Below, in pieces: positions 4,351 to 30,364 of a stretch of 64,000 nt of DNA (position 1 is its first letter; the number at the start of each line of letters is the position of its first letter). Where the stretch lies: assembly GCA_047601445.1 (NCBI GenBank), contig JASGJH010000001.1:1632001-1696000 (forward strand), in the 5' to 3' direction. Origin of the DNA: Myxococcales bacterium. GTDB lineage: Bacteria > Myxococcota_A > Polyangia > Polyangiales > DASUME01. The position numbers were made by a program, and so were the translations under genes. A model generated the notes under the pieces. The model was given only the letters and a program-made list of their open reading frames with translations, was not told where the DNA came from and did no database searches.

Positions 4351-4804
4351 TCACGCGCCGTCGGCGCTCCCCGTCATTCGCAGCGCCAGCTCTTCCATAT
4401 CGAGCAGCGTCAGCGGCCCATCGTCCGTCAATACCGGCTCGCCCGGCGTGAGGGCTGCGCGGAATGCCACACTGCCCACCGAGCGCGTGCTCTCCGCCGG
4501 GACGCCCAACAACCCAAGACTCGACTTGCACACCACCAACCTGCGCGTTGCGGTGGCGGCATGCAGTGGGCGCGCGACCGCGACGAGTCGTCCGCGGTCT
4601 TGAACCACCCCGAGCACCTCGCCGGCCGTTTCCGGGATCTCCGTTGGGTTCCGTCCAGGGCACGATTGAATCGACGGCGGTCGGCGCGATGCCGAGCAGG
4701 ATGGGTCCCTGCGTCAGCACCAGCAGTTCTCGTTCGCCATGCGCCGCATCCACCGCACCGACTTGCTCCGCCAGCTCGGCGAACGCAGAAAGCTCGTCAC
4801 TCAC
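4351..4804 (-). CDS. cheW: CheW-like protein, split by a 1-bp frameshift near 4645
   Basis: Joining two ORFs gives LLGIAPTAVDSIVPWTEP-TEIPETAGEVLGVVQDRGRLVAV...GLLGVPAE..LLDMEEL. GGAGG lies upstream of the GTG at 4804. Confidence 0.6.
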
Positions 4805-5113
4805 TCGCACTACCTCCGAGCCCGCGATCTTACCGTTTTGCGAGCTGCGCCACGCGCGAAGCATCGCTGACATTACACGTATTTTTGAGGCGCTTTTGTC
4901 TGCCTGCAGACAACGCCAAAACTGTTGCCTGCGAACGCATCACCCCTTTACGATTCAGCAACATTCGATCCGAATCGCCCACAGCGCCTGGGGAGGCTCT
5001 GCGGGAATCACTGGATCGAGAAGTCTCTACATCGGGGGAGACATCGCGAGCTCCAACGAGCTGCGTGGATGGCATGGGTTTGCCGTGTGAACGAACGGCG
5101 GGCAGGGGAAAAC

Positions 5114-6150
5114 ATGAAGAAGGTCACGAGCGCTCTCTAATGCTTGGGTTGGTAGGTTCGGCTTGCGGTGGCGATGACGGTGACAAAACCGTGCGCGAGA
5201 ACACCGGCAAGCTCCGCGTTGGCTTCGTCAATTTCCAGGAAATCAGCGTTTGGCGCGACGAGGAGAACCGCAGCGTGCAGGCCGAGGCCGAGAAGCGCGG
5301 CTACGAGCTCGTGTATCGCAACTCCGTCGACGAGTCGCGCCAGGCGGACGACATCGAGGAGCTGGCCGCGATGGGCCTCGACGGCATCTTCCTCGCTCCG
5401 AAGGTCGTGTCGCTCGCTTCCTCCGTCGTGAGTGCGAGCAAGGCCGGCGTGCCGATCATCCTGCTCGACCGCGGCGTGGACGAAAGCGTGGCCAAGCCCG
5501 GACAGGACTACCTGACACTCATGTCCTCTGACTTTGCGCTCGAAGGTAAGATGGTCGCCGAGTGGGTCAACGACCACTTGGGCGAGTTCGAGGCCAAGTG
5601 GGGCGCGATGCCGGCGGGTGGCTGGCCCGCGCTCGAGCTCGAGGGCAGCATGGGTGCGGACCCGGCCATCAAGCGCAAGCAAGGCTTCGACGCCGAGATT
5701 GCCGCCAACGGTGGCGGCAAGGTCAATATCGTCGCCTCGATCACGGCGAACTTCGACGACGCCAAGGCCAAGGAAGTCACCACCGCCCAGCTGGCCGCTC
5801 ACCCGGACCTCAAGATCATCTACACGCACAACGACGGCATGGCGATGGGCGCCATCAGCGCCATCGAAGCCGCCGGCCTCAAGCCGTCCGACTTCATGAT
5901 CGTCTCCATCGACGGCGCCAAGATGGCCACCCAGGCGATCTTCGACGGCAAGATGAACCTGACGGTGACCTGTAACCCGAGCTTCGGCCCCTCGGCCTTC
6001 GACAAGCTCGAGGCGTTCCTGGCCGGTCAGAGCCTGCCCACGCACATCGTCACCAGCGACGTCGCCTGTGACCTCGCCGCGGTGATGCAGGCGTTCGGGA
6101 ACACCGACGACGCCCACGAGCCCTGCGACGGCTTCGGGTCCGCCAACTGA
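5114..6150 (+). CDS. Sugar-binding periplasmic lipoprotein (RbsB/YtfQ-like), frameshift near 5138
   Basis: MKKVTSAL/LMLGLVGSAC signal, AGVPIILLDRGV, IYTHNDGMAMGAI, IVSIDG. Confidence 0.85.
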
Positions 6151-6224
6151 TTTAGGTGCGCGAGACGGCTCACGGGCCGGTGCGAGCCCCCGTGAGCCCG
6201 AGATTGGATACGCCGGCGAAGACG

Positions 6225-7472
6225 ATGCGCAATTTCTCTGTGACGATCCTCCGCTCTAGCCTGCTCCTGTGTTTGTTGCATGGCTGCTCGGACCCCGCCC
6301 CTGCCGATACGGTCTCGTTCGGTCTGGCGTTGCCCTTTACGGGCGCGAGCGCCCAGCGCGGCGTGAACATCGAGCGGGCCATGATCACCGCTGGCGACGA
6401 GATCAATCGCGCCGGAGGTGTGCTCGGACGTGAGGTGCATTTCCGTGCCGTGGACACGCACTCCACCACGTACGAGGGGATGCGTGCAGCGACTCCGCTG
6501 TTTTCGGACGGCGACGCCGTGGCGGTGCTCGGGCCCGACAGCAATGACCTCGCCCTGAGTCTGGCCCCGGTTGCCCACAGCTCGGACAAGCTCCTGGTGA
6601 CGCCCAGCGCGACGCCGCGCAGCGTGGCCGTGTCCAAAGACGAGCGCGACCACTGGCTTCGCCTCAACCCATCGGTGTCCCTGCTGGCCGACAAGCTCGC
6701 CGAGCAGATCATCGCCGACGACCGCAGGCACGTGCTCATCGTACACGTGGTGGATTCGCTGATGGTGGCGTTGAAGGATCAGATCACCAGCCGGCTGGTC
6801 CGCGACACGCAGACGCGCGTGCCGGCCGCCGTGGCGATCACGCCCGATCGTTTTCCCGACAATACCGCGGTGATCGAGGCGCTTGCGCATGCCGGAGACA
6901 CCTACGACGCCGTCGTCGTCCTGGCCTATCCCAACCGCGCCGCGAGCATCGTGAACGACGTGGTGCTCTCCTATGCACCCGCGCGCCGCAAGGCCATCGG
7001 CTGGTACTTCTCGCATACCGTGCGGAGCCCCGAGTTCCTCGAGCACGTGCTGACCGAGTACATCGAGGGTGGCACCGGCGTGGCCTTGGCCGTCGGCCAG
7101 GATGCCGCGGCATTCCGTGAGCTCTTCCGCGAGCGCTGGTTCGGCGATGAGCCCACCGAGGAGGCCTACTACTACGTCGACGCGCTCAACCTGCTCGCGC
7201 TGGCCACGGAGGCGACGGGCGCCGACGACCCCAGCGAGGTCGCGGCCGCCACGCTGAGCGACAACATCCGCAAGCTCGCGCAGGCGGGCGGGCAAGAAGT
7301 GCGCTGGAACCAGCTCGACGCGGGCCTCGAGGCGGTGCGCGCGGGCAAGCCGGTTACCTATCTCGGACTCACTGGAAATCTGCAGCTGATGGGAGGCGAG
7401 CTTCAGCGTGAAGTGGTCGACGCATCGTTGTGGCGAATCGAAGGAGGGAAGTATGCGTCCTTCACGCGCTAA
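6225..7472 (+). CDS. LivJ/LivK-type periplasmic binding lipoprotein
   Basis: Lipobox LHGC, FGLALPFTG, EINRAGGVLGR, YLGLTGNL. Confidence 0.85.
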   Translation: MRNFSVTILRSSLLLCLLHGCSDPAPADTVSFGLALPFTGASAQRGVNIERAMITAGDEINRAGGVLGREVHFRAVDTHSTTYEGMRAATPLFSDGDAVAVLGPDSNDLALSLAPVAHSSDKLLVTPSATPRSVAVSKDERDHWLRLNPSVSLLADKLAEQIIADDRRHVLIVHVVDSLMVALKDQITSRLVRDTQTRVPAAVAITPDRFPDNTAVIEALAHAGDTYDAVVVLAYPNRAASIVNDVVLSYAPARRKAIGWYFSHTVRSPEFLEHVLTEYIEGGTGVALAVGQDAAAFRELFRERWFGDEPTEEAYYYVDALNLLALATEATGADDPSEVAAATLSDNIRKLAQAGGQEVRWNQLDAGLEAVRAGKPVTYLGLTGNLQLMGGELQREVVDASLWRIEGGKYASFTR

Positions 7473-9867
7473 GTCGGTGCGCTCTCGAAGTCTTCTTCTG
7501 TTGGCCGGCTCCTTGGCCATGTGTGCGAGCGCGGTGCACGCACAAGACGCGGCCTTGCCGCCGTCCGAGCCAGCCACGTTGCCTCAGGCTCCCGTCGAGC
7601 CGCCTGCGCAGGTCCCCGAGCAAGTCGGTGAGACTGCCCCCGTGGCAGCACCCGAGCCTGTCCTTGTCGATGCGACAGCCGGTCAGCCGGCGCCCGAGCA
7701 GCCCGCGGCAGCGGCCCCAGCGGCACCGCCAGCCGACGAGGCTGGTTCCGAGGCACCCGTAGAGCCAGCGTCCGAGGACGCGGTGCCAGCAGACGGATCG
7801 ACCGACGAAGCGGAGCTCGCGGAGCTGAGCCTCGAGCAGCTCCTCAGCCTGGAGATCGTCTCCGCCACCAAGGACAAGCAGCGTCTCGAAGAAGCCCCCG
7901 CCATCATGACCGTCCTCACGCAGGACGACATGCGCAAGTGGGGCTATCGCACGGTGGTCGACGCGCTCAAGCACGTGCCCGGCTTCTATGTGGTCGACGA
8001 CGGCACCATCCCCAACGTCTCCACGCGCGGCATGGGCGGAAGCCTGCATGCCGAGAGCGGTGGCATCAAGGTCTTGATCAACGGCACCGCTGCCACCTAT
8101 CGCAGCACGGGTGGCCAGTGGCTCGACTCGGCCAACCTGCCGGTGGCTGCCATCGAGCGCATCGAGATCATCCGGGGACCGGCCTCAGCGCTCTACGGCG
8201 CCGACGCGTTCCTGGGCGTCGTCAACATCGTGACGCGGCAGTCCTTCAGCAGCACCGATGTCGGCGAGCTCACCGTGGGTGGCCGGCACCGCTTCGCGAC
8301 GGACAACAACGGTGGTGACGGCTCGTTCGCGGTAGGCCGGAACGAGGAGCGCTATCGCTTCATGTTCTCCGGCAACTACGACCGCGACGACCGCTCCGGC
8401 CTCAAGCTGCCTTCGAGTTCCCCGGCTCCCAACACCGGCGAGCGCGACGCGCACAGCCTGCGCTCACAACAGCATCAGGACTCCGCCTCGTTCTACGGGC
8501 GCGGTGAGTACAACGCGTCCGACACCGTCAAGCTCAGCCTGGCCGGCTACTACGCTCAGCTGCGGCGCGACGACGAGTTCTCGTACCTGACCCAGTTCGC
8601 CAACATCACCGACGAGAATGGGCGCCCTTCTCGCAACCAAATCGCGCGGCAAAACGCCTTCGTGACCGCGCGCGCCGACTGGGCCGCCACCGACAAGGTG
8701 AACCTGTCCCTGGACAGCACGTTCTTCGAGGGCCAGCCCCTCAAGGGCGACCGCACCGAAAACGGCGACGAGTTCTACTACTACCAGAAGCGCCATCGTT
8801 CGCGTGGCAACCAGACCAGGCTCGAGGGACAGTGGAAGCTCGAGCGCGTGTCGCTCACCGTGGGCGCGGAGTCCATCTACGACATGGAGCTGCTGCCGCA
8901 GGTCACCGTGCGCTCGAAGGTGCCCGCCGGCACCATCGAGCCCGGCGAGACCGTCGCCTCCCACACGCAGGGCGAAAAGGCCTTCGTGAACTTGGCCGCC
9001 TTCAGCCAGGCGCAGTGGAAGGTGTGGGACCAGTACCTGACCCTGACCGGTGGTGCACGTTACGACCACCACAACATCTACGGTGGCCAACCGAGCGGCC
9101 GCATCGGCGCCGTCTCGTCGCCGGTCGAGAGGCTCTCGATCAAGGCCCTGTATGGCACCGCTTTCCGGGCACCGACGCCGGAGCTCCTGTACGCCATCCC
9201 TGCGGCTCCCGGTGACATCAGCGGTAACCGCGGCCTCGCTCCGCAGCGCGTGCACACCATCGAGGGAGAGGTCTCGTACCGCTTTACCCCGAACTTGATG
9301 GCCACGACCGGCCTCGCCTACAACATCCTGCAGCACGGCGCCGAGTTCGTTCAGGTCGGAGCGTTCAAGGAAGCGTTGAACCTCACCAGCTTGAACAGCC
9401 TCTCCTGGGAATCGTCCGTACGCCTACGTTACCCGGACAACATCGAGGCCTACGCGAGCTACGAGCTCAACCACACCGAGCGTGACGTGGGCGGCTCGAG
9501 CTACCAGTCATCGCTAATCGGCAAGGACGGCGTCATCTATCCGCGCATGCAGCTCCACACGGGCGTGAACAAGGCGTTCCCGAGCCTCTACTTCCGGGTC
9601 TTCGGTGAGTTCACCTTGATCGGCAAGCGTCGGGCCAGCGTGGACAACATTCTCGAGAAGGGCGCGTCCTACTACCTGAGCCAGTACTACTTGTTCGACT
9701 GCGGCGTGAGTACGATGAAGCTGCAGGCCCTCGAGGGTCGCGACACCGATATCTCGCTCTTCGTTCGCAACGCGTTCGGCGCCAACTCGCCCGACCCAGG
9801 CTTCGGCGGCGTCGACTATCCCCGCCTGCCGCTCACTGTTTTCCTCCAACTTCGTCAGAAGATCTGA
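7453..9867 (+). CDS. TonB-dependent receptor (YfiR-associated type) with Pro/Ala-rich N-terminal linker
   Basis: LAELSLEQLLSLEIVSATK..EAPAIMTVLT plug, IERIEIIRGPASALYGADA..GVVNIVT, YGTAFRAP. Confidence 0.92.
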   Translation: MRPSRAKSVRSRSLLLLAGSLAMCASAVHAQDAALPPSEPATLPQAPVEPPAQVPEQVGETAPVAAPEPVLVDATAGQPAPEQPAAAAPAAPPADEAGSEAPVEPASEDAVPADGSTDEAELAELSLEQLLSLEIVSATKDKQRLEEAPAIMTVLTQDDMRKWGYRTVVDALKHVPGFYVVDDGTIPNVSTRGMGGSLHAESGGIKVLINGTAATYRSTGGQWLDSANLPVAAIERIEIIRGPASALYGADAFLGVVNIVTRQSFSSTDVGELTVGGRHRFATDNNGGDGSFAVGRNEERYRFMFSGNYDRDDRSGLKLPSSSPAPNTGERDAHSLRSQQHQDSASFYGRGEYNASDTVKLSLAGYYAQLRRDDEFSYLTQFANITDENGRPSRNQIARQNAFVTARADWAATDKVNLSLDSTFFEGQPLKGDRTENGDEFYYYQKRHRSRGNQTRLEGQWKLERVSLTVGAESIYDMELLPQVTVRSKVPAGTIEPGETVASHTQGEKAFVNLAAFSQAQWKVWDQYLTLTGGARYDHHNIYGGQPSGRIGAVSSPVERLSIKALYGTAFRAPTPELLYAIPAAPGDISGNRGLAPQRVHTIEGEVSYRFTPNLMATTGLAYNILQHGAEFVQVGAFKEALNLTSLNSLSWESSVRLRYPDNIEAYASYELNHTERDVGGSSYQSSLIGKDGVIYPRMQLHTGVNKAFPSLYFRVFGEFTLIGKRRASVDNILEKGASYYLSQYYLFDCGVSTMKLQALEGRDTDISLFVRNAFGANSPDPGFGGVDYPRLPLTVFLQLRQKI

Positions 9868-9901
9868 GCACTCGCACCTGGTGGCGTCCAAAGCCGCACC
9901 C

Positions 9902-10270
9902 ATGAACATCCTCATCATCGACGACAGCGAGCTCTCCCTGCAGGCCATGGAGACGACCCTGAAGGCCCATGGCCACCGGGTGGTCTGCACGTCGTCCCCC
10001 ATTGGGGCCACGCGTCTCATCCTCAACGAGAAGATCGACGTGGTGGTGGTGGACGTGAATCTGCCCAGTATGCGCGGAGACAGCCTGGCTGCTCTGTTCC
10101 GTAAGCAGCCGCGCATGCAGCACGTCGGTGTCGTCTTGGTCTCGGGCGTCGAGCCGGAGGAGCTCAAGCGACTCACCGACGAGAGCAAGGCCGACGCCAT
10201 GTGCAACAAGCAGGACGTGCGCGAAGGACTCCATCCAGCCGTGATGACGGCTCGCCGAGCCCGCAAATGA
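9902..10270 (+). CDS. Single-domain response regulator (CheY-like)
   Basis: ILIIDDS, VVVDVNLP phospho-acceptor Asp, conserved Ser and Lys. Confidence 0.9.
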   Translation: MNILIIDDSELSLQAMETTLKAHGHRVVCTSSPIGATRLILNEKIDVVVVDVNLPSMRGDSLAALFRKQPRMQHVGVVLVSGVEPEELKRLTDESKADAMCNKQDVREGLHPAVMTARRARK

Positions 10271-10620
10271 CTCAAGTGTTGACCTTCATCCATCGCAGCG
10301 TTCGGGCTGCCATCCCGGCCCAACAAGCCGACGGCCTGGCCGCCAGTGACGCAGGACTCGAGCGCATCGCGTTGTGGCGCGGCGGCTCCGAGGTCATCGA
10401 GCGTTGGTTGCGCCTGCGCGCTGCGCGCGGTCATTTCGGCCTGAGCTGCAGCGAAGTCGAGCTACTCGAGGTTCCCTCGCGCGAGCTCATTCCCATCAGC
10501 GGCGTACTGGCCGCAGCGCTCAAACTCCCGCACGTCGTGGGCTTCGCCACGATCGCACACAAGCCGACCTGGTTGGTCGACGTAACCCGCCTCACGGCCA
10601 ACAACGCACGGGTAGAATAG
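10267..10620 (+). CDS. Small divergent CheW-like protein
   Basis: ATGA overlap with the regulator; C-terminus LPHVVGFATIAHKPTWLVDVTRL resembles the CheW end. Confidence 0.45.
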   Translation: MTQVLTFIHRSVRAAIPAQQADGLAASDAGLERIALWRGGSEVIERWLRLRAARGHFGLSCSEVELLEVPSRELIPISGVLAAALKLPHVVGFATIAHKPTWLVDVTRLTANNARVE

Positions 10621-10647
10621 GTTATGGGTACTCGCGTCCGGGTCGCT

Positions 10648-11211
10648 ATGGAGAAGCGCCCTCGAGTCCAATGGAGCCGCACCGCGCGAGCGTGCCTGCT
10701 GCTTACATGCCTGGCGCTGCCGTGCATCGCACTGGCTCAGCAGGTCCCCGCCGCCATTCGGGCTGCGATTCTGCTCCGTTCGTTGTCCTACGAAAAGGGC
10801 TTCGCTGCCGGCACCGGCCCCGCCACGGTGCTGGTTCTGAGCGGCTCCAACGGGACCAGCGACGGCAACGAGACGGCCGCCTCCATGAAGAAGCTGGCGA
10901 CCAGCGGCGGCTCCACCCGTCAGCTGCGCGTGGAGACCTCGAGCTCCGACGCGAGTGCGGCCGAGGCGAAGCGGACCAAGGCCCAGGTGGTGTATGTCGC
11001 CAGCGGCAACGAGCGGGCCCTGTCGGAGCTCTCCGAGCTCCATCACATCATCGTGCTGTGCGGCGATCCCGCGGGCATCGGCAAAGGCTGCGTGCTGAGC
11101 GTCGAAGTCTCCGGGACGAGCTCGCGGCTCGTCATCGACTTGGCCCGCGCGACCAAGCTGGGATTGCAGCTCGACGCGCGCATTCTCCGCCTCGCGCGCG
11201 TGGTCCGCTGA
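10648..11211 (+). CDS. yfiR: YfiR/HmsC-family periplasmic protein
   Basis: Signal peptide, IRAAILLRSLSYE, C-terminal LVIDLARATKLGLQLDARILRLARVV matching the YfiR INLxAAxxAGLxISSxLLxLA pattern. Confidence 0.8.
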   Translation: MEKRPRVQWSRTARACLLLTCLALPCIALAQQVPAAIRAAILLRSLSYEKGFAAGTGPATVLVLSGSNGTSDGNETAASMKKLATSGGSTRQLRVETSSSDASAAEAKRTKAQVVYVASGNERALSELSELHHIIVLCGDPAGIGKGCVLSVEVSGTSSRLVIDLARATKLGLQLDARILRLARVVR

Positions 11212-11233
11212 GCCGCTGGCTCGACGAGGAATC

Positions 11234-12754
11234 ATGGGTACGTTCATCTCGATTCGATTCAAGATCGCCGCGTTGATCGCCTTGCTGGGCTTCGCGTTGG
11301 CAGGTTTGGGAGCCGCCGCACTGCCGCGCTACGCGGCGAGCGCCGAGCGCGAAGGTCTGGAGCAACGCGCCGCGGGCGCCGCGGCCATGCTCGCAGGAGC
11401 CGTCTCGCCGGCCCTGGAGTTCGACCAACCCGATACGGCGCGCGAGATCCTGGAGGTGGCCCGCGAGGATCGCCTGGTGCGCTGGGTGGCTGCCTACTCG
11501 GATAGCGGCAAGCTCGCGGTGGCCGTGGGACGCGGCGCACTCGATCGCGTCGAAAAGGTCGACTCCGCGCGCCTGCTGAGCGGAGACAATGCCAGCATCG
11601 TGACGCTCGCCCCCTCGCGCTCCCAGGGCAAGGTGGTGGGCGCTGTCGTGGTGGCCCTCGACTCCCGCGGCATCGGCCTGCGTGAAGAGCAGACCCGACG
11701 CGCGATCCTGCTGCAGGCCACCGTGCTCAGCGCGGTGTTCGTGCTGCTCTCCATCTGGTTGTCCGGCCGCATGACCCGCGTACTCGGTAAGATTGCCGCG
11801 GCGGCGGAGCGCATCGCGCGCGGAGACGTGACCGAGGACTTCGCGCTCGAGCATCCGAACGACGAGCTGGGCAAGATGGCCCACGAGTTCGTCCGGATGG
11901 CGCACCGGCTGCGCGAGCTGCAGCAGAACGCGGCCCGCGTGGCGGCGGGCGACCTCGACGTGAGACAAACGGGCGACGGCGAGCTCTACGTCTCGTTCCG
12001 CACCATGGTGAACAACCTGCGCACCCTGGCGGCCCGCATCGGTGCGAGCTCCGACGCGGTGGCCCAAGCCGCCGCCGCGCTGTTCTCCGCCACGCGTGAG
12101 CACGAGGCCTCGGCAACGCAGCAGACGGCCTCGGTGGAGGAGATGCGGCGCACGCTCGAGTCGTTGGCGTCTTCGGCCGAGCGCGTCAATGCCGACGCCG
12201 GTCAGGTGCGCGACATGGCCGAGCGCAGCTTGCACAGCTCGCAGCAGACCGCCGACCAGACCAAGCTCGTGAGCACCCACTCGGACCGCATCGGCGAGAT
12301 CCTCACCTTGATCCAGGACATCGCGGACAAGTCGGATCTGCTCGCGCTCAACGCGGCCCTCGAGGGCACCAAGGCGGGCGAAATCGGGCGCGGTTTCTCG
12401 CTGGTGGCCGCCGAGATGCGGCGTCTCTCCGAGCACGTGGTCGACTCGGTGCGCGACATCCGCAAGCTGGTCGCGGACATGCGCACGGCGTCCCACGCAT
12501 CGGTGCTGGCCACCGAGGAGAGCATCAAGCTCGCCAAGGAGGCCGCCACCTCGGCGGGCAAGATCACGAGCGCCGTGGGACAACAGCGGGAGGGCACCTC
12601 GCAGGTCAAGGGCGCAGCCGAGGAGATCGTGCGCGTGGTCAACACGTCGCTCGATGGCACGGCCCAGATCACGCGCTCGGCCGAGTCATTGCTGCAGCTT
12701 TCGCACGAGCTCAAGGACGCAGCGAAGGCCTTCCGGCTCAACGCGGCGGCGTGA
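11234..12754 (+). CDS. Methyl-accepting chemotaxis protein with CHASE8-like sensor and HAMP domains
   Basis: Two TM helices, SPALEFDQPDTAREILE..AAYSDSGKL, DELGKMA HAMP, LLALNAALEGTKAGEIGRGFSLVAAEMRRLSE. Confidence 0.93.
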   Translation: MGTFISIRFKIAALIALLGFALAGLGAAALPRYAASAEREGLEQRAAGAAAMLAGAVSPALEFDQPDTAREILEVAREDRLVRWVAAYSDSGKLAVAVGRGALDRVEKVDSARLLSGDNASIVTLAPSRSQGKVVGAVVVALDSRGIGLREEQTRRAILLQATVLSAVFVLLSIWLSGRMTRVLGKIAAAAERIARGDVTEDFALEHPNDELGKMAHEFVRMAHRLRELQQNAARVAAGDLDVRQTGDGELYVSFRTMVNNLRTLAARIGASSDAVAQAAAALFSATREHEASATQQTASVEEMRRTLESLASSAERVNADAGQVRDMAERSLHSSQQTADQTKLVSTHSDRIGEILTLIQDIADKSDLLALNAALEGTKAGEIGRGFSLVAAEMRRLSEHVVDSVRDIRKLVADMRTASHASVLATEESIKLAKEAATSAGKITSAVGQQREGTSQVKGAAEEIVRVVNTSLDGTAQITRSAESLLQLSHELKDAAKAFRLNAAA

Positions 12755-12757
12755 AGC

Positions 12758-14891
12758 GTGCCCAGCCTCGACGAGCTCGTCCGCACCTTCCTGCGCGGGC
12801 TGCCGGACCGCATCGTCACGGCCACCGACCTGTGGCTGGACTTCGAAGAAGGCCGGCGCCCGGAATCTGACGGCGCTCAAGCGCGTCCTCCACACCGTGA
12901 AGGGCGAAGCCCACATGCTGGGGCTGTCGGCCACGGGCGGGCTCCTACAAGAGCTCGAAGGGCTGGTGGTCAAGGCGCAAGCGGCGGGTGTCGCAGGCCG
13001 CTCCGCGGGGTCGTCGGTGCTCGAAGCACTCGATGCACTGTCGGTGCTGTCGGGGACCCCCGAGCAAGGAGAGGCGACGTTCGACCTCGGACCGGTGCTA
13101 GACAGCCTACGCCATTCGGCCGCGGCGCTCGTCGTGGCCCCTTCGCAGGCCCCCGTCGCGCACCCCGAGGCTGACGCAGGAGCTTCGCCGCCGGATGGCG
13201 TCCAGGGAGCCGCCCGCCACGACGATGACAGCGACGACAGACGCTCGGTGAATCAGGTGCGGGTCGATGAGATTCAGCCCACCATTCACGATCTGCGACG
13301 CCTCTTCGAAGAGCAAGCGCAGACCCAACGACGTCTGCGCGAGGTACAGCGGATCCTGCGTGCGGTGGTGGCCGAGATTGATCCCGCGCTGCCCCCTGCC
13401 GTGCTCGGCGAGCGTGTGATCAAGACCCTGGGTGCCACGGCCGACCTCGAGCGTCGCTTGTCGGCCATCCGCAGCGAGTGGTCCGCCAACGCTTTCGCGA
13501 CCGGCCTCGCGCTCGACCATCTCTCCGACACCACGCGCCGCGCCGCAGTGGTGAGCGTGGCGCGCCTGCGCACGAGCTTGGAGCGCACCCTCCGTAGCAC
13601 CAGCAAGTCGCTCAAGAAGGAAGTCCAGATGCGCGTCGAGGGCGACGCGTACATCGACGCCGTGATCGCCCAGCGCCTCGAGCCCGCGCTGCTGCACGCC
13701 GTCCGCAATTCCGTGGATCACGGCATCGAAGAGCCGGCGGAGCGGATCGCCCGGGGCAAAGCCGCGAGCGGCATGATCGAGGTGCGCATCTCCCAGCTGG
13801 TCTCCATGGTCCAGGTCATCGTTCAGGACGATGGACGTGGGGTCGACGTGCGTGCCTTGCGCCGGCGCCTCCAGGCCGCAGAGGACCTGAGCGATACCCA
13901 GGTGCTCCACATGCTTTTTCGAAGTGGCGTATCGACACGGGATCAAGTGAGCGACATCTCGGGCCGAGGCGTCGGACTCGACGTGGTCGCGCGCGAGGTG
14001 GCCGCGGTGGGTGGATCGGCCCAAATCGAGACCACGCCAGGCCTTGGATTTCGGCTCATCCTCACGCTTCCCTCGGTGCTCCGCGCCGACCTCGTGGTGC
14101 CGATCGGAATCGGCGACAAGCGGCTGGCCCTGCCCTGTCGCAGCGTCGAGGGCTTCTCGCGCATCGCGCGCATCGAGGACACGACGCGCGGCCTGTACGC
14201 GCGCGTGCGCTCGGGGGACCAGGACGTGTCGTTGCCGGTGTACAGCCTCGCCAGCGTGTTCGGCCATAGCGCCGCTCCCAGCTCGGGTGCCCGGGGTGTT
14301 TTGGTCGTACACGAAGGCTTTCGGTTCGTCCTGGTGGTGGACCAGCATGAGAACCCGCGTACGCTGCCCTTTCAGCCCATCTCGGAGCTCGCCGTGCGCT
14401 CACGCGTGGTGCGCGCCGTGGCCCCCAGCCCCGAAGGCGTACGCCTCCTGCTCGACGTGGGCGCCCTGGTGCGCGCGCTGCAGGGCTCGACCCTCAAGGT
14501 CAGCACCGAGCAATCGCGCGGCACGGCGCGCGTCGTCGTGGTGGAGGACGCACCGGTCGCGCGCGAGCTCCTGTGCGGCATCTTGCGTTCGTTCGGGCTC
14601 GAGGTGTTCGAGGCAGCGCACGGGCGCGAGGGGCTGGCCGTGATCCGGGAGCGGGCGCCGAACCTCGTACTCAGTGACGTCGAGATGCCCTTCCTGAGCG
14701 GGCTCGACATGGTGAGTACGCTTCGGCAGGAGGCGCGCTTCGCCGATCTGCGCGTGATCTTCCTGACCACCGACACCAGCGAAGTCACGCGCCGCAGAGC
14801 CGGCGCCCTGGGTGCCGTGGGCTTTCTCTCCAAGCAACGCTTCGTTGAGGACGAGCTCAGGAGGTTGGTCGACTCGTGCCTGGCACTCTGA
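12758..14891 (+). CDS. cheA: Hybrid CheA (Hpt-HATPase-CheW-REC), frameshift near 12862
   Basis: LHTVKGEA Hpt, HAVRNSVDHGIE, DDGRGVD, STRDQVSDISGRGVGLDVV, C-terminal REC (VVEDA..SDVEMP). Confidence 0.92.
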
Positions 14892-15841
14892 TCTCGGCCC
14901 CAGTGCGCGTGGTGATCGCGGACGACTCCGCCATCGCTGTCTCGCGCCTGGCTCAGCTCCTATCCGAGGAGGCCGGCATCGTAGTGGTGGGAACCGCAAA
15001 CAGCGCCGACGAACTCGAGGCGCTGGTCGACAAGCTCAAGCCCGACGCGGTGACCCTGGATATCCTGATGCCGGAGCGTCCCGGCTTGTCTGCCATCCGC
15101 GGGCTCTCGACGCGCACGCAAGTGGTGGTCGTGAGCGACATCGAATCCGGCTCGGCCCTGGCGGGGGAGGCGCTCGCGCAAGGAGCTGCGCTGTTCGTGT
15201 CCAAGCGCGAGCTCGGCAGCCCCGCAGGAGCAGCGCGGCTGGTGAGGGCGCTGCTACAGCACGCGCAGGCGCCCCGGCCGCTGCAGCTGGTGGCGATCGC
15301 AGGTTCCACCGGAGCCATGCCGGCCCTCGAGCAGATCATCCCGGACCTGGCAGATTGTCCGGCCGCCTTCGTCATCGTCCAGCACCTCCCTGCTGCGCGC
15401 ATGCCCGCATTCGCCGAGTGGATCTGCGAGCTCGGACTGCCGAGTGAAACGCTGCCGGGCGCGCGTGCGCTGCGTCCCGGTATGGCCTGGGTCGCCCCTG
15501 GTGACCGACACCTGCGAGTGGTGGGCTCCCATGCGACCCTCGACGATGGTGAGCCCGTGATGGGACACAAGCCTTCGGCCACCGTCATGGTGTCCTCGCT
15601 CGTGCGCCTGGCCGCGCGCACCACGCTCATCATCCTCTCCGGCATGGGCAGCGACGGCGCCTCCGCCGTGCCTGCATTCGTAGCGGCCGGAGGCAAGCTC
15701 GTGGTGCAGCAGCCCAGCACCTGTGCAGTCCCCGGAATGCCCGAGGCAGCATTGGCGGCCAGCCCACGCTGCCACGAGCTCGGGCCTCGGGAGATCGGTC
15801 GCTTCGTCACCGGCAGCCTGAGCGCGCGCCGCCATGTCTAA
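14876..15841 (+). CDS. cheB: CheB methylesterase with REC domain
   Basis: VIADDS/TLDILMP receiver; catalytic GSTG, VQHLP, SGMGSDG. Confidence 0.92.
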   Translation: MPGTLISAPVRVVIADDSAIAVSRLAQLLSEEAGIVVVGTANSADELEALVDKLKPDAVTLDILMPERPGLSAIRGLSTRTQVVVVSDIESGSALAGEALAQGAALFVSKRELGSPAGAARLVRALLQHAQAPRPLQLVAIAGSTGAMPALEQIIPDLADCPAAFVIVQHLPAARMPAFAEWICELGLPSETLPGARALRPGMAWVAPGDRHLRVVGSHATLDDGEPVMGHKPSATVMVSSLVRLAARTTLIILSGMGSDGASAVPAFVAAGGKLVVQQPSTCAVPGMPEAALAASPRCHELGPREIGRFVTGSLSARRHV

Positions 15842-16937
15842 GTCGCTCGACCAACTCCTGACTGGCTTGCTCCACGAGCGCCTCGGACACATGGGACCAT
15901 GGCCGGCCCACGTGCGGCGCTTCGTGAGGGAGCGCGCCGAGGCTGCCCGCCTGTCGGAGCTCGAATGGCTCGAGCGTGTGAGAGGTCGACCCGACGAACT
16001 GTCGGCCCTCGTGGACGCGGCCACGGTGAACCACACGTCGTTCTACCGGCATCGCGAGCACTTCACACAGCTCGCGGCCAGCTTGCCGCGCCTACTGACG
16101 CGCAGAGCTCCGCTCCGCGTTTGGTCGGCGGGTTGCTCGACCGGCGAGGAGACCTGGAGCATCGCCCTCACCCTAGCGGCCCACGGCGCACCGTTCCACC
16201 TGCTCGCCACGGATGCCTGCTCCCGCGCAGTCAGCGTGGCTCGGCGCGGGCACTATGCGGCCGCCCTGACCCACGGCCTGCCGGGGCACGACGGCGGGCT
16301 GGCGTTCACCGCGCCGGCCGACTTGCGCAAGCACGTGCGCTTCGAGGTCGGCACGCTGCTCGACGAGCTGCCGTCCGGGATTCGCGGCCCCTTCGACATC
16401 ATCTTCTGCCGCAACGTGCTGATTTACGTGTCGCCAGAGTATCTCCGGCGCGCCTGGGGCCGCTTCGTCTCGTTGCTTTCGCCCTGGGGCGTGATGGCGG
16501 TCGCTCCCGTGGAGTCCTTGCACGGGGTCCCCACGTCGCTGCGACGCCGGGGTCCGCTCGGCTGGCTCGAACCGTCGGAGACCGCGGCCCCCTCGCAAGC
16601 TCCTGCGGAACCTCGCCCACGCGCAGTGGCCGCTCCTGTCAGACCCGCCGAGCTGCCGAACGACGCGGAGGCGGCCGATCCCTCACTCGCCACGGTCGAA
16701 CACTACCTGTCGACCGGCGACCTGGGAGCCGCCGAAGATGCACTCCACGAGTTGCTCGCGCGCAACGACGACGGAGTCGCGTGGTTCCTGCTCGGAGAGG
16801 TGTGCGCCAAGCGCGGCGCGACGGCGCAGGCGAAGGTCGCTTTTAATCGTGCCAGCACGGCAACCTGGACCTCGGGCAGCAATGACCTGGAGACCATCCG
16901 TGCAGCCGCCAAGCGTCGGGCTCGACAGTGTGGTTGA
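15834..16937 (+). CDS. cheR: CheR methyltransferase with C-terminal TPR
   Basis: NHTSFYR, VWSAGCSTGEE, DIIFCRNVLIY, TPR-like AWFLLGEV..AKVAFNRA. Confidence 0.92.
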   Translation: MSKSLDQLLTGLLHERLGHMGPWPAHVRRFVRERAEAARLSELEWLERVRGRPDELSALVDAATVNHTSFYRHREHFTQLAASLPRLLTRRAPLRVWSAGCSTGEETWSIALTLAAHGAPFHLLATDACSRAVSVARRGHYAAALTHGLPGHDGGLAFTAPADLRKHVRFEVGTLLDELPSGIRGPFDIIFCRNVLIYVSPEYLRRAWGRFVSLLSPWGVMAVAPVESLHGVPTSLRRRGPLGWLEPSETAAPSQAPAEPRPRAVAAPVRPAELPNDAEAADPSLATVEHYLSTGDLGAAEDALHELLARNDDGVAWFLLGEVCAKRGATAQAKVAFNRASTATWTSGSNDLETIRAAAKRRARQCG

Positions 16938-17055
16938 CAATCTGAAGCCTTCAACCCGTGTGCGAACTCAGAACTCCTGCGGAGCCACCCGACCGCATAC
17001 GCGGAGCCGACGCCCAGGCTAGACAACCCCTGAGAAAGCGAGGATGCTCCCGCGC

Positions 17056-17976
17056 ATGCGCAGCCCGAGCCTACTTCTCGCCTTGTCGCTAGGAGCCGCC
17101 TGCAACGCTGGCTCGGATCCAGGCCACCTGGATGCAGGCCTCGCCCCAGACGATGCGGGCATGCAGGCACAAATGGACGCGGCGACGCACGCGGACGCCA
17201 GCGATCACGAGCGCGATGCTTCGCAGCCAGGCAAGCATGGCGACGCCGGCACCGACGCCGCGGTCGACCTGGCTCTGCCTCCCATCAACGCCGGCTTCGA
17301 CTACCAGTTGGGCGGCGGCTATCCACCGCCCAGTGGCGTGGGCATCGTGTCGCGGGATCGCACGGACGAGCCCGCCAAGGGACTCTTCAACGTCTGCTAT
17401 GTCAACGGTTTTCAGGTCCAGCCAGGCGAGGAGCAACGCTGGGCACAGGACCTCATCCTGCGTGACGCAGCCGGCAACGCCATCATCGATCCGGACTGGA
17501 ACGAAGCCCTGCTCGACGTGAGTACGGCGGACAAGCGCACGCGCATCGCGGCCATGCTGAACGGCTTCATGGACGGCTGCGCGAACGCCGGCTTCGATGC
17601 GGTCGAGATCGACAACCTCGACAGCTATGCGCGCTCCAAGGGCAAGCTCACGCAAGCCAACGCGGTGGCACTGATGGCATTGCTCTCCGGGCACGCGCAC
17701 TCGCGCGGCCTCGCCATCGCTCAGAAGAACAGCACCGAGCTGCTCGCGCGCCGCGCCGAGATGGGCACCGACTTCGCCGTGGCCGAGGAGTGCAGCCGCT
17801 ACGATGAGTGCAAAGACTACGTGGATGCCTACGGGTCCCACGTGTTGATGATCGAATACCGGAAAGCCGACTTCGACAAGGGCTGCAAGGCCTACGGCAG
17901 CACGCACTCCATCGTGTTGCGCGACCTCGACCTGGTTCCGAAGGGTCAGGCGGGCTATCTGTTCGACGACTGCTGA
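17056..17976 (+). CDS. GH114 endo-alpha-1,4-polygalactosaminidase-like lipoprotein
   Basis: FDYQLGGGY, VCYVNGFQVQPGE, GFDAVEIDNLDSY, AQKN, AVAEEC. Confidence 0.85.
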   Translation: MRSPSLLLALSLGAACNAGSDPGHLDAGLAPDDAGMQAQMDAATHADASDHERDASQPGKHGDAGTDAAVDLALPPINAGFDYQLGGGYPPPSGVGIVSRDRTDEPAKGLFNVCYVNGFQVQPGEEQRWAQDLILRDAAGNAIIDPDWNEALLDVSTADKRTRIAAMLNGFMDGCANAGFDAVEIDNLDSYARSKGKLTQANAVALMALLSGHAHSRGLAIAQKNSTELLARRAEMGTDFAVAEECSRYDECKDYVDAYGSHVLMIEYRKADFDKGCKAYGSTHSIVLRDLDLVPKGQAGYLFDDC

Positions 17977-21593: not shown

Positions 21594-21773
21594 GACCTAC
21601 TAGTGCGCTCCTTGTTTGTGGCCGGCGCTGCGGGGGCGCAGGGGCGTCGTGGCTGCCAGAGGGCGCTTTGTCGGTCGGTGGGAGCGCTTCGATGGGAGTC
21701 GGTGGCGGTTCGATGGCCGGCGCACCTGTGGGGATGAAGTTCCCCCGGTTCCGTTGACACGCAGGAGAGACCC

Positions 21774-22112
21774 ATGCGTGTTCAGAAGCAGCAGCGCTAC
21801 ACAGATGAGTTCAAGGCAGAGACGATCGCGCTGATGAAGCGAGACGACCGGACTTTCGCGCAATTGGCCGCGGATTTGGGGATAAACAAGTGGACCCTGC
21901 GGGAGTGGTACAACAGGGACCAGATGGCCAAGAAGAGCAAGCGAAAGCCGGGAGCACCTGTAGCTCCGGCTCCCTCTCAGGAGACGGCAGAGGAGAAGGC
22001 TGCGCGGCTGGAGCGTGAGAACGAGCGGCTGCGCAAGAAGGTCGAAACCCTCGAGATGGACCGCGAAATCCTAAAAAAAGCGGCAGCCTTCTTCGCGAAG
22101 GAAAGCGAATGA
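21774..22112 (+). CDS. IS3 transposase OrfA
   Basis: YTDEFKAETI HTH, leucine zipper, ILKKAAAFFAK; A7G slippery site 22073-22080. Confidence 0.95.
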   Translation: MRVQKQQRYTDEFKAETIALMKRDDRTFAQLAADLGINKWTLREWYNRDQMAKKSKRKPGAPVAPAPSQETAEEKAARLERENERLRKKVETLEMDREILKKAAAFFAKESE

Positions 22113-22984
22113 GGTTCGCCTTCATCCACGCGGAGAAGGCGAACTTCCCGGTGTCAGCGCTGTGCCGGAACCTGCAGGTGACCCGGCAGGGGTACTACGC
22201 GTTCGCGAGTCGCCCGCCGAGTCCCCGTGCGGACCAGGACCGGGCCCTCTTGGAACGGGTCGGCCAGGTGCACGCGGAGAGCCGCAACGCCTACGGAAGT
22301 CCGCGAGTTCGAAAGGAACTCCGACGTCGTGGCATTCGGGTCGGCAAACGCCGGGTGGAGCGCGCCATGCGGAGCTTGGGGCTCTGCGCCCGGCCTCGTC
22401 GCCGGTTCCGTGTGACCACCGCTGCAAATCCGCGGCATCCAGTCGAGCCTAACGTGCTCAACCGCGAGTTCCGCGCCGAACGTCCCAATCAGCGCTGGGT
22501 GACGGACATCTCGTACGTCTGGACCGACGAGGGCTGGTGCTACCTCGCTGTCATCATCGACCTGTTTTCCAGGACCGTCGTGGGCTGGGCGCTGGACGCC
22601 ATGCTCTCGACCCAGCTGCCCCTCGCAGCGCTGGACATGGCGCTTCGGCGCCGTCGTCCCGACGCAGCAGGCCTGCTCCACCATTCTGACCGGGGCTGCC
22701 AGTACACGAGTCAGGAATACCGCTCTGAGCTCGCCCAGCGTGGGCTCTCGGTCAGCATGAGCCGCAAAGGCAACTGCTGGGATAACGCGGTCGCCGAGAG
22801 CTTCTTTTCAACCATCAAGGCCGAGCTAATTCATGGTCGACGTTGGGCCGGGCGCCTTGAGCTTCGGTCGGCGGTCTTCGAGTACATCGAGGTCTTCTAC
22901 AATCGGCGGAGGCTTCATTCGTCACTGGGGTATCGAACCCCAGCCGAGTTCGAGAAGGACTACACTGCGGCTCAGGCCGCCTAA
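22109..22984 (+). CDS. IS3 transposase OrfB (DDE)
   Basis: WVTDISY, HHSDRGCQY, CWDNAVAESFF, YNRRRLHSSLGY. Confidence 0.97.
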   Translation: MRFAFIHAEKANFPVSALCRNLQVTRQGYYAFASRPPSPRADQDRALLERVGQVHAESRNAYGSPRVRKELRRRGIRVGKRRVERAMRSLGLCARPRRRFRVTTAANPRHPVEPNVLNREFRAERPNQRWVTDISYVWTDEGWCYLAVIIDLFSRTVVGWALDAMLSTQLPLAALDMALRRRRPDAAGLLHHSDRGCQYTSQEYRSELAQRGLSVSMSRKGNCWDNAVAESFFSTIKAELIHGRRWAGRLELRSAVFEYIEVFYNRRRLHSSLGYRTPAEFEKDYTAAQAA

Positions 22985-23328: not shown

Positions 23329-23533
23329 GTCAACGCGCAGCCCCCCACTCTTTGCGTTCGTCGAACCAACGCCCTCACTTCTCCTCAACGTTCCCGGCCC
23401 CAGTTCGCTCCCGCGAACTGGGGTCGCGCGAGGAGGCCCAGGGACGCTATGGCGGAGCGAGCGCTTTGTCGAACATGCGTCCTCACAGGTGCGCTGAAGC
23501 TCCCCCAGTTCCGTTGACACGCAGGAGAAACTG

Positions 23534-23872
23534 ATGCGTGTTCGGAAGCACAACAAGTACACCGATGAGTTCAAGGCAGAGACGATCGCGCTGATGAAGC
23601 GGGACGACCGCAGTTTTGCCCAGTTGTCCGTGGATTTAGGCATCAGCAGCTGGACCTTGCGGGAGTGGTACAACAGAGACGAGATGGCCAAGAAGAGCAA
23701 GCGGAAGCCGGGGGTACCGGTCGCTCCGGTACCTGCTGCTGAAACGGCAGAGGAGAAGGCGGCCCGGCTGGAGCGGGAGAACGAGCGGTTACGCAAGAAG
23801 GTGGAGTCGCTCGAAATGGACCGCGAAATCCTAAAAAAAGCGGCAGCCTTCTTCGCGAAGGAAAGCGAATGA
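23534..23872 (+). CDS. IS3 transposase OrfA
   Basis: Paralog of 21774-22112; A7G at 23833-23840. Confidence 0.95.
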   Translation: MRVRKHNKYTDEFKAETIALMKRDDRSFAQLSVDLGISSWTLREWYNRDEMAKKSKRKPGVPVAPVPAAETAEEKAARLERENERLRKKVESLEMDREILKKAAAFFAKESE

Positions 23873-24744
23873 GGTTCGCCTTCATCCACGCGGAGAAGGC
23901 GAACTTCCCGGTGTCAGCGCTGTGCCGGAACCTGCAGGTGACCCGGCAGGGGTACTACGCGTTCGCGAGTCGCCCGCCGAGTCCCCGTGCGGACCAGGAC
24001 CGGGCCCTCTTGGAACGGGTCGGCCAGGTGCACGCGGAGAGCCGCAACGCCTACGGAAGTCCGCGAGTTCGAAAGGAACTCCGACGTCGTGGCATTCGGG
24101 TCGGCAAACGCCGGGTGGAGCGCGCCATGCGGAGCTTGGGGCTCTGCGCCCGGCCTCGTCGCCGGTTCCGTGTGACCACCGCTGCAAATCCGCGGCATCC
24201 AGTCGAGCCTAACGTGCTCAACCGCGAGTTCCGCGCCGAACGTCCCAATCAGCGCTGGGTGACGGACATCTCGTACGTCTGGACCGACGAGGGCTGGTGC
24301 TACCTCGCTGTCATCATCGACCTGTTTTCCAGGACCGTCGTGGGCTGGGCTCTGGACGCCATGCTCTCGACCCAGCTGCCCCTCGCAGCGCTGGACATGG
24401 CGCTTCGGCGCCGTCGTCCCGACGCAGCAGGCCTGCTCCACCACTCTGACCGGGGCTGCCAGTACACGAGTCAGGAATACCGCTCATCGCTCGCCCAGCA
24501 CGGGCTCTCGGTCAGCATGAGCCGCAAGGGCAACTGCTGGGATAACGCGGTCGCGGAGAGCTTCTTTTCGACCATCAAGGCCGAGCTAATTCACGGCCGA
24601 CGTTGGGCCGGACGCCTTGAGCTCCGGTCCGCAGTCTTCGAGTACATCGAGGTCTTCTACAATCGGCGGAGGCTACATTCGTCACTGGGGTATCGGACCC
24701 CAGCCGAGTTCGAGAACGATTACACTGCGGCTCAGGCCGCCTAA
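23869..24744 (+). CDS. IS3 transposase OrfB (DDE)
   Basis: Near-identical to 22109-22984. Confidence 0.97.
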   Translation: MRFAFIHAEKANFPVSALCRNLQVTRQGYYAFASRPPSPRADQDRALLERVGQVHAESRNAYGSPRVRKELRRRGIRVGKRRVERAMRSLGLCARPRRRFRVTTAANPRHPVEPNVLNREFRAERPNQRWVTDISYVWTDEGWCYLAVIIDLFSRTVVGWALDAMLSTQLPLAALDMALRRRRPDAAGLLHHSDRGCQYTSQEYRSSLAQHGLSVSMSRKGNCWDNAVAESFFSTIKAELIHGRRWAGRLELRSAVFEYIEVFYNRRRLHSSLGYRTPAEFENDYTAAQAA

Positions 24745-29561: not shown

Positions 29562-29564
29562 GGT

Positions 29565-30314
29565 TCAACCATCGAGCGAGAGGATACCCGTGTCGCCTTT
29601 CACGCCAAAGGCCGTGATGCTTTCGTAGCGAGGTTCGGTCAGGATGCTGATCACGTGTTGGCCGAACTCCCGCGGAGACATCGGCTTGCCGAAGCCCGCC
29701 AAGAATTCCTCCACCGTGATGCCCTTCTTCGTGGCGTAGGCCGTCGCACAGGCTCGCCCATGATCGGTGGCACCCATCATCTGACGCGGCACAATGGCCT
29801 GGAAGCGCAGGTCGAGCCCGCGTTCCGCGGCAACGCCATTGGCGTAGTGCGCCATCATCCAGATCATCCGCTTGGCACCGCCGTGGCCACCCGAGAGCGG
29901 GGACCCCGACACGGCCGCGCCGCTGGATCCCAGCAGCACGCGGCTGCCCTTCTCGAGCGGCAATCGAATGGCCGCCTGGGTCCACTGCAGTGCTGCGCGG
30001 GTATCGGTGTTCCAGGTTGCGCTGAAGTCCTCCCATGAAATCTGGTCGATGGCCCGCATCGGCGGCGTCACGCCCGCGTTGAGGACCAAGACCGCAGGTC
30101 GAACCTCACGCAGGGCCCGGCCGGGGAGTTCGGGATCCGCGATGTCCCCCGCGATGGTGGTCACGCCCAGGCGTTGCGCGAGCTCCGCGAGCCGCCCTGG
30201 ATGGCGAGCGATCACAGTGACTTCGGCTTCGGCTTCCAGCAAACACTCGACCAGTCCCAGGCCCAGACCTCGGCTTCCGCCCGTCACGAGCACGCGCTTT
30301 CCTCGGAGCTGCAT
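29565..30314 (-). CDS. SDR-family oxidoreductase (atypical active site)
   Basis: TGGSRGLG, VLNAG; HGGAK in place of YxxxK. Confidence 0.85.
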   Translation of the reverse strand: MQLRGKRVLVTGGSRGLGLGLVECLLEAEAEVTVIARHPGRLAELAQRLGVTTIAGDIADPELPGRALREVRPAVLVLNAGVTPPMRAIDQISWEDFSATWNTDTRAALQWTQAAIRLPLEKGSRVLLGSSGAAVSGSPLSGGHGGAKRMIWMMAHYANGVAAERGLDLRFQAIVPRQMMGATDHGRACATAYATKKGITVEEFLAGFGKPMSPREFGQHVISILTEPRYESITAFGVKGDTGILSLDG

Positions 30315-30364
30315 GGCTGCGATTTCCTTTGTAGCGATGGACCACGTTGGTTCATCGAGGAAAG

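Follow-up and report, generated by a model that had tools for sequence, protein, structure and literature searches.

The 64,000-nucleotide stretch of DNA analyzed here, hereafter the window, comprises positions 1,632,001 to 1,696,000 of the forward strand of contig JASGJH010000001.1 (assembly GCA_047601445.1) of a Myxococcales bacterium (Polyangiales; DASUME01), has a G+C content of about 67% and belongs to a genome of 9.5 Mb that consists of a single contig. At 4351-16937 it carries a chemosensory (Che) gene cluster in which the genes for a methyl-accepting chemotaxis protein (MCP), CheA, CheB, CheR, CheY and two CheW-type proteins lie together with those for a YfiR-like protein, a TonB-dependent receptor and two periplasmic binding proteins (Table 1). 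All eleven genes that an earlier interpretation of the same DNA, made from the letters alone (the sequence-only reading), had named in this region are present, and Pfam directly backs nine of them; the two that have no match in Pfam or NCBIfam are the mini-CheW gene and the divergent cheW. In the reading developed below, to which we give a probability of roughly 0.55, the genes form a complete and conserved Che operon whose MCP has a YfiN-type sensor that is likely kept in check by the YfiR-like protein, with the receptor and the binding proteins as the predicted input from outside.

Table 1. Genes of the chemosensory cluster, followed by annotated neighbors in the window (positions within the window; ORF, open reading frame; aa, amino acids; scores are Pfam bits).
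Feature	Position	Strand	Basis and remarks
Divergent cheW	4351-4873	-	stop codon at 4351-4353; orthologues have about 147 aa; reading frame broken near 4645-4660
Sugar-type periplasmic binding protein, putative lipoprotein	5114-6150	+	Peripla_BP_4 (PF13407) 116.6; ATG at 5114
Type I (Liv/ANF-receptor type) binding protein, putative lipoprotein	6156-7472	+	Peripla_BP_6 (PF13458) 62.6, ANF_receptor (PF01094) 53.1; likely start near 6225
TonB-dependent receptor	7453-9867 (ORF from 7408)	+	Plug 72.8, barrel 63.4; no other families
CheY-like single-domain response regulator	9902-10270 (ORF from 9881)	+	Response_reg 49.5; start set by orthologue alignment
Mini CheW-fold protein, 117 aa	10267-10620	+	predicted fold, conserved family; shares four bases with the end of cheY
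YfiR-like (DUF4154) protein	10624-11211	+	PF13689 37.8 (cut-off 24.9); N-terminal signal sequence read from the translation
MCP	11234-12754	+	MCPsignal 83.5, HAMP 49.8, CHASE8 19.6 (cut-off 27)
CheA-REC	12758-14891	+	Hpt, HATPase, P5/CheW and C-terminal REC by Pfam; apparent frameshift near 12855
CheB methylesterase with receiver	14876-15841	+	CheB_methylest 130.6, REC 53.8
CheR methyltransferase with C-terminal TPR-like tail	15834-16937	+	CheR 107.2; TPR_16 22.0, below cut-off
GH114 glycoside hydrolase	17044-17976	+	directly after cheR
IS3-type transposase pair, first copy	21738-22981		HTH_Tnp_1 ORF, then rve integrase ORF
IS3-type transposase pair, second copy	23498-24741		adjacent to the first copy
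Extracytoplasmic function (ECF)-type sigma factor	28632-29564
Second TonB-dependent receptor	33071-35521	-	only Plug matched
PepSY_TM protein	36631-38058

The sequence-only reading had assigned the gene that it placed at 10648-11211 to YfiR, and this identity is borne out both by the Pfam cut-off, which the product passes, and by its predicted YfiR fold. The DUF4154 match spans profile positions 2-143 of 143, and a whole-genome search agrees with it and returns this gene as the sole DUF4154 gene in the genome. A profile built from ten YfiR-like relatives matches the solved YfiR structure 4zhu over its whole length (E 0.0045). With an AlphaFold2 (AF2) model of the protein (pLDDT 88; helix at residues 18-36), Foldseek retrieves the YfiR chains 4yn9, 5eb1, 4zhu and 4xjy at E 5e-4 to 1e-3 (TMt 0.62-0.68), its top match being the half-size substrate-binding protein 5z6v. 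The N-terminus, as read from the translation, is a hydrophobic segment ending in ALA-QQ; the putative mature part comprises residues ~39-195, and its C-terminal face, in the LLRLARVVR region, is conserved. The predicted fold thus marks the product as a YfiR-like protein that is distantly similar to the solved ones. The protein has a pair of cysteines with a spacing of about ten residues (LCGDPAGIGKGC in the window), which the 15 closest YfiR-like orthologues share and the five more distant ones lack; a functionally important disulfide is known from this region of solved YfiR.

The MCP encoded directly downstream consists of a first transmembrane (TM) segment, a CHASE8-like periplasmic sensor of about 125 amino acids, a second TM segment, a HAMP domain and an MCP signaling domain; MCPsignal is its output domain by Pfam, with no GGDEF match in the protein. 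NF053592, the NCBIfam model of a "sensor histidine kinase, YfiR-like protein-associated", aligns end to end with MCP residues 6-225 (53.6 bits, E 2e-14; cut-off 194). CHASE8 (PF17152) is detected at E<=0.01 in nine of 21 MCP orthologues, the best at 1.4e-6, and stands in the precomputed Pfam annotation of database entries for three relatives. These matches support, at the level of sequence similarity, a kinship of the MCP sensor with YfiR-associated sensors. A homologue search with the sensor region found nine to ten close MCP relatives, the window protein included, and a weak remainder of mostly HAMP-containing kinases. The N-terminus of the window MCP matched two of 401 genomes of the phylum at E<=1e-10, which is weak evidence of rarity as at most seven candidates per genome were scored. 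The MCP carries a consensus methylation site (SATQQTAS) at residue 293, and the motif is found at the same site in 15 of the 21 orthologues. The genome holds five MCPsignal matches in all; Sorangiineae are reported to have only two to five MCPs per genome (PMC6194562).

Coupling of this receptor to CheA would involve two CheW-type proteins. The short gene between cheY and yfiR belongs to a conserved family of 19 sequences; neither Pfam nor NCBIfam nor a comparison of its family profile with PDB sequences gave a match, yet the AF2 model (pLDDT 90, pTM 0.84) has a CheW fold, as CheW and CheA (P5) entries fill the first 17 Foldseek ranks (E from 3.2e-5, TMq 0.56-0.72). The earlier call of this 117-residue protein as CheW-like thus holds by model, and its product is predicted to be a minimal CheW-fold protein and as such a second, highly diverged coupling protein. 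A 123-amino-acid ORF of a Myxococcus Che3-like locus, considered as a relative of it, was ruled out (probability 0.3). The divergent gene had likewise been called CheW-like, and here the support comes from orthologue alignment: its window fragments have no Pfam match themselves, and orthologues of the gene encode a CheW, about 147-169 amino acids long, which reaches the Pfam CheW cut-off in seven other loci (L034, L044, L038, L017, L050, L029 and L035; L and G numbers are our labels for loci and genomes, respectively). An MCP, a CheA and a CheW-type coupling protein are therefore all encoded, cheA and the canonical cheW with a frameshift in the assembly. CheB, CheR and the receptor methylation site complete the gene set for methylation-based adaptation, an activity that is predicted from these sequences. 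As for the CheR-TPR protein named by the sequence-only reading, the methyltransferase part stands by Pfam, while the TPR part stays below the cut-off in the window and exceeds it in the So ce26 orthologue (L034; TPR_19, 28.4 against 25). The CheY-like gene is kept beside the cluster in other loci, and near the phospho-acceptor region the receivers of this family of clusters have in common an unusual, conserved stretch (SPIGATR ... DVxxPxxRGD).

The YfiR-MCP-Che linkage on which the sequence-only reading was built is kept across Polyangiales. A scan with one genome per species gave 24 loci with a near full-length orthologous MCP (47-77% identity), from Sorangium cellulosum So ce56 and So ce26, other Sorangium strains, and metagenome-assembled genomes of Polyangiaceae and Sandaracinaceae; four of these loci lie on contigs shared with a locus set gathered earlier. 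The YfiR-like gene is present in 23 of the 24, the exception being a contig of 8,983 bases, and the canonical CheW also in 23, followed by mini-CheW (17), CheB (16), the TonB-dependent receptor (16, by tblastn) and the type I binding protein (9, by tblastn). The order of the genes varies: the yfiR gene of Sandaracinus comes after cheR and is encoded on the other strand, those of L017 and L022 belong to a block that runs counter to the MCP-to-CheR genes, and that of L050 is located beyond the receptor and two binding-protein genes. The comparison shows that the yfiR-MCP linkage survives gene-order rearrangement. Among 61 relatives, the YfiR-like protein was matched in 12 genomes, in seven of which (including that of the window) it is encoded together with the orthologous MCP, and most of these seven loci also have CheA, CheB, CheR, CheY and mini-CheW; the remaining matches fall in loci that also match a receptor, a kinase ATPase domain or a receiver. 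In So ce56 (L035), an OmpA-like ORF that scores below the Pfam cut-off lies downstream of cheA.

At the level of the phylum, DUF4154 occurs in 69 of the 401 sampled genomes. The neighbor of yfiR was taken in the 30 best-scoring DUF4154 loci, a small sample in which kin are not independent. It is a CHASE8-HAMP-MCPsignal protein in 13 loci (five families, with eight loci from one family), a CHASE8 histidine kinase in six (six families) and a CHASE8-HAMP-GAF protein in one, is cut off by the locus end in one, and was left unassigned by the ORF picks in nine. In seven of the 30, the gene directly upstream of yfiR encodes a receptor barrel, and the output is an MCP or a kinase. According to the sequence-only reading, a cyclase or a histidine kinase is the usual output of such cassettes; in this sample of the phylum the opposite emphasis is found, with MCPs outnumbering kinases by 13 to six and no cyclase among the 21 resolved of the 30 loci. 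MCP output is clearly not exceptional in this phylum, and the window version is a diverged Polyangiales branch of the YfiR-MCP architecture.

This modularity has precedents in the literature. One study regards the YfiR-YfiN[PAS] core as highly modular and of wide occurrence and names GGDEF-EAL, HPT and histidine kinase as its outputs (PMC3375315), and its Table S4 lists in silico a Polaromonas YfiN-type sensor with "MCP output domain" (Malone et al., 2012, PMC3375315); the supplements of that paper (PMC3375315) make no mention of TonB. A literature search found no experimental study of a receptor-YfiR-MCP system or of the corresponding NCBIfam trio. The earlier statement that no characterized example is known thus agrees with this search, and homologous loci, whose presence in other myxobacteria it had left as a possibility, do exist; the MCP-output form itself was already on record in silico in 2012. 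Judged by sequence, the cluster is a real and conserved variant of the modular YfiR-YfiN core, not a rare one, and one that had already been noted in silico.

The receptor and the binding proteins form the outward-facing part of the cluster. The window receptor has a Pro/Ala/Glu-rich N-terminal extension of low complexity and about 100 amino acids, with the plug starting at residue 160 of the ORF from 7408, and no STN domain, as Pfam gave only Plug and barrel. Across the receptors of the loci the plug begins at ORF residues 72-336, and these receptors therefore carry N-terminal extensions; Plug and barrel were found by Pfam in all eight receptor ORFs scanned from Che-linked loci. The sequence-only reading had named both binding proteins as lipoproteins and had given them no role. 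Their presence stands, their lipoprotein status being read only from N-terminal, Cys-containing signal sequences, and binding proteins recur with the receptor: L041 has the same combination of Peripla_BP_6, Peripla_BP_4 and receptor as the window, other loci have proteins of the SBP_bac_1 or DctP type, and binding proteins beside the receptor are Pfam-confirmed in L034, L041, L044, L038 and L050. No ABC permease or ATPase is found among the annotated neighbors of the binding proteins in the window, L041, L044, L038 and L050; in L034, FtsX/MacB-type genes lie upstream of them. The YtfQ, RbsB and allose-binding models of NCBIfam match the sugar-type protein far below their cut-offs. Two copies of the receptor outside Che loci were inspected, and both lie beside sensor kinases, one of them also with a Peripla_BP_6 protein and a TonB gene. 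At L101:6834-15984 (G444), a Peripla_BP_6 protein, a close receptor relative, a 1049-amino-acid HAMP-Hpt-HATPase protein and a TonB gene are encoded together, a set that could represent one more sensor linked to a receptor, in which a membrane sensor and a CheA-like kinase are fused; a 204-amino-acid ORF in L101 was ruled out as YfiR-like (hhalign probability 0.2).

In YfiBNR, YfiR acts on the periplasmic domain of the cyclase YfiN to repress it and is itself sequestered by the outer-membrane lipoprotein YfiB (PMC4887326; PMC3375315). Control of the MCP and CheA by the YfiR-like protein is proposed here because of the analogy with this system. In the proposed pathway, the free YfiR-like protein would bind the periplasmic sensor of the MCP and thereby set CheA activity, and YfiR would be titrated, or its binding altered, by a ligand-dependent event at the outer-membrane receptor, by binding proteins loaded with ligand, or by both. 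CheA would then phosphorylate the stand-alone CheY and its own receiver, and CheB and CheR would adapt the MCP by methylation. That the YfiR-like protein acts on the MCP is probable on this analogy; that the TonB-dependent receptor is the upstream input, in the role that YfiB has in YfiBNR, as the sequence-only reading had it, we propose more tentatively, at slightly less than an even chance. Polyangiales are not known to be flagellated, and candidate outputs are therefore motility (by gliding or by pili), the production of polysaccharide, or gene expression. A bolder proposal, which we consider unlikely as a whole, is that of a TonB-energized chemoreceptor, in which the receptor would capture a substrate too large for porins and pass it on to the lipoprotein binding proteins, and YfiR shuttling would convey their occupancy to a methylation-adapting array that steers motility or development of the non-flagellated myxobacteria towards polymers or prey products perceived across the entire envelope; the receptor-YfiR-CHASE8 input would then be a general plug-in for Che systems and histidine kinases across the phylum.

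Several observations, gathered in this paragraph and at the start of the next but one, weigh against the reading of the cluster as a receptor-fed and YfiR-checked Che operon. The CHASE8 match of the window MCP stays below the cut-off, although it covers profile positions 2-101 of 102, and in a protein-language-model (ESM) look-up the sensor lies equally near to the sCache_3, sCache_4 and CHASE8 (+HAMP) clusters. The sequence likeness of the YfiR-like protein is weak: it scores 37.8 bits in Pfam, reaches 27.9 of the 125 bits required by NF053591, and has 30% identity (pairwise E 0.09) to a canonical DUF4154 trio member from another family of the phylum. Five Sorangium loci of the So ce56 type (L031, L032, L035, L037 and L047) retain the receptor, CheW, CheY, YfiR, MCP and CheA and have no match to mini-cheW, cheB or cheR, so that methylation-based adaptation is not universal in the family. 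As to the receptor, cheY and mini-cheW separate its gene from yfiR in the window, Sorangium loci have a different receptor subfamily directly upstream of cheW, and none was found in L046 and L048. The best match to the window receptor falls outside the Che locus in So ce26, So ce56 and G444, three of five other genomes, and is the cluster's own receptor only in G443; the window receptor is not strictly co-inherited with the cluster.

These last points would fit an arrangement in which YfiR and the MCP alone form the sensor, with the receptor and both binding proteins serving ordinary nutrient uptake and adjoining that sensor by chance, as would the variation of receptor subfamilies by lineage, the lack of an STN domain and the description of yfiR-yfiN pairs without an outer-membrane partner (Malone et al., 2012, PMC3375315). 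We hold a chance association to be unlikely, if still deserving of some weight, since the receptor adjoins in 16 of the 24 loci despite their rearrangements and lies directly upstream of yfiR in seven of the 30 loci from other families of the phylum, since its closest paralogues elsewhere also adjoin sensor kinases, and since NCBIfam curates a trio of receptor, YfiR-like protein and kinase; nor is an ABC transporter gene annotated beside the binding proteins in the loci listed above, L034 having the FtsX/MacB type. The same lack of an annotated transporter partner can also be read in another way. In E. coli, the maltose-, ribose- and galactose-binding proteins dock on Tar and Trg, and the binding proteins of the cluster might likewise be the true ligand sensors that dock on the MCP, the receptor only importing the ligand and YfiR being a secondary modulator. 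Their presence with the receptor in nine of the 24 loci by tblastn, Pfam-confirmed in five, and the YfiR fold itself, which is half a binding protein, agree with such docking; the type of binding protein, however, varies among Peripla_BP_6, Peripla_BP_4, SBP_bac_1 and DctP while the MCP sensor is conserved, and nine of 24 loci compare with 23 of 24 for YfiR, which makes docking as the primary input very improbable.

The remaining difficulty is that three cluster genes are split over two frames: the divergent cheW near 4650, the gene for the sugar-binding protein near 5138 and cheA near 12855. Two-frame tblastn places the first approximately 35 residues of CheA, from the GTG at 12758, on the N-terminus of the orthologue and the remainder in the frame of the ORF at 12654-14891. 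The L015 and L016 orthologues of the divergent cheW align in two frames at 47-53% identity, and the sugar-binding protein has its signal peptide (ATG at 5114) in a different frame from the mature part, with the shift near 5138. Because of these split frames, ORF tables alone give wrong N-termini for the three genes. An AHSA1 domain outside the cluster (approximately 55255-55320, about 40 kb away) is split as well, with profile positions 2-58 and 55-122 in two frames, and the single-contig genome was scored with 5.4% "contamination", so that assembly indels are a reasonable explanation; the data suggest that the frameshifts, apparently of single bases, may reflect indel errors in the assembly. 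Three apparent frameshifts within 12.6 kb could also mean that the system is decaying in this strain, cheA, the canonical cheW and the sugar-binding gene being true pseudogenes. This is improbable in view of the frames that flank each shift, which are well conserved with the orthologues (65-70% for CheA, 47-53% for CheW), and of the split AHSA1 domain and the "contamination" score, both of which fit assembly indels.

To our knowledge, no YfiR-controlled sensor other than YfiBNR has been studied, and the output of YfiBNR is cyclic di-GMP. In the reading of the cluster as a YfiR-checked Che operon, the periplasmic repressor logic of YfiBNR is combined with a complete Che pathway that includes adaptation, and also with binding proteins and a TonB-dependent receptor, in a cluster that is kept in culturable Sorangium strains. 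If the proposed wiring is true, it would show how the Che pathways of non-flagellated bacteria get signals from beyond the outer membrane, and would give a function to a large catalogued class of cassettes with a receptor, a YfiR-like protein and a sensor. The conservation of a second, minimal protein with a predicted CheW fold bears in addition on receptor-array architecture.

Outside the cluster, cheR is directly followed by the glycoside hydrolase gene, whereas no GH114 was annotated downstream in any of seven other Che-linked loci. About 5 kb farther downstream, an IS3-type transposase pair is present in two adjacent copies. Farther away, a second TonB-dependent receptor is encoded with an ECF-type sigma factor and a PepSY_TM protein (Table 1), and the locus from 28632 to 38058 looks like an ordinary uptake or cell-surface signaling locus.

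TonB-dependent transducers of cell-surface signaling are of the FecA-FecR-FecI type. The cluster resembles them in that an outer-membrane receptor with an N-terminal extension is proposed to signal to an inner-membrane sensor, and differs from them in that its receptor lacks the STN domain and that the cluster contains no gene for an anti-sigma or ECF sigma factor, the ECF sigma gene of the window being located about 19 kb away, beside another receptor. Among characterized Che clusters, the closest found, by its MCP signaling domain, is Che3 of Myxococcus xanthus (Mcp3A/B, CheA3, CheW3, CheB3, CheR3, CrdA and CrdB). Loci of Myxococcus, Corallococcus and Archangium match the MCP signaling domain only (about 33% identity, residues 222-505), and one Myxococcus locus, L058, with an NtrC-type regulator, an OmpA lipoprotein, CheW, two MCPs, CheA-REC, CheB and CheR, is from this gene content inferred to be Che3. 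CheA-REC, CheB and CheR are common to both systems, and for Che3, too, a periplasmic accessory protein has been proposed to pass signals from the envelope into the pathway (PMC3147164). Che3, however, has two MCPs without a CHASE8-like sensor, the OmpA lipoprotein CrdB, which is proposed to relay envelope stress (PMC3147164), the NtrC-type output CrdA and no CheY, whereas the window cluster has one MCP, YfiR, the receptor, the binding proteins and a stand-alone CheY, and no Sigma54_activat/NtrC-like or OmpA match among its annotated cluster genes and flanks. The window cluster differs from Che3 in its sensor, its accessory genes and its output.

Nearer relatives are found among YfiR-linked systems. 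The NCBIfam trio of NF053590 (TOL_0244 family receptor), NF053591 (TOL_0243 family YfiR-like protein) and NF053592 (kinase) shares with the cluster a receptor, a YfiR-like protein and a CHASE8-like TM sensor with HAMP, and all three models match window proteins. Their curated cut-offs are missed by far (92.2 against 645, 27.9 against 125 and 53.6 against 194 bits, respectively), so that the window proteins are distant relatives of the trio and not members of it; the output of the trio is a kinase and that of the window an MCP, and kinase-output cassettes exist in relatives. The Polaromonas pair has in common with the window a YfiR homologue and a YfiN-type sensor with MCP output, and is known from a one-line in-silico entry that does not give a receptor, binding proteins or a Che operon context. 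YfiBNR of P. aeruginosa and E. coli (YfiN/TpbB/DgcN), to which HmsCDE of Yersinia is a related system, shares with the window a DUF4154 protein, predicted to be periplasmic in the window, encoded beside a protein with two TM segments that flank a small periplasmic sensor, followed by HAMP. The solved YfiR resembles the window protein weakly in sequence, as reflected in the E value of the family profile given above. No OmpA/Pal-like YfiB gene, as judged by OmpA-family matches, is present among the cluster genes or annotated flanks, and a TonB-dependent receptor and two binding proteins are found instead. Finally, the output of YfiN is a GGDEF domain, whereas that of its window counterpart is an MCP signaling domain placed within a full Che operon.

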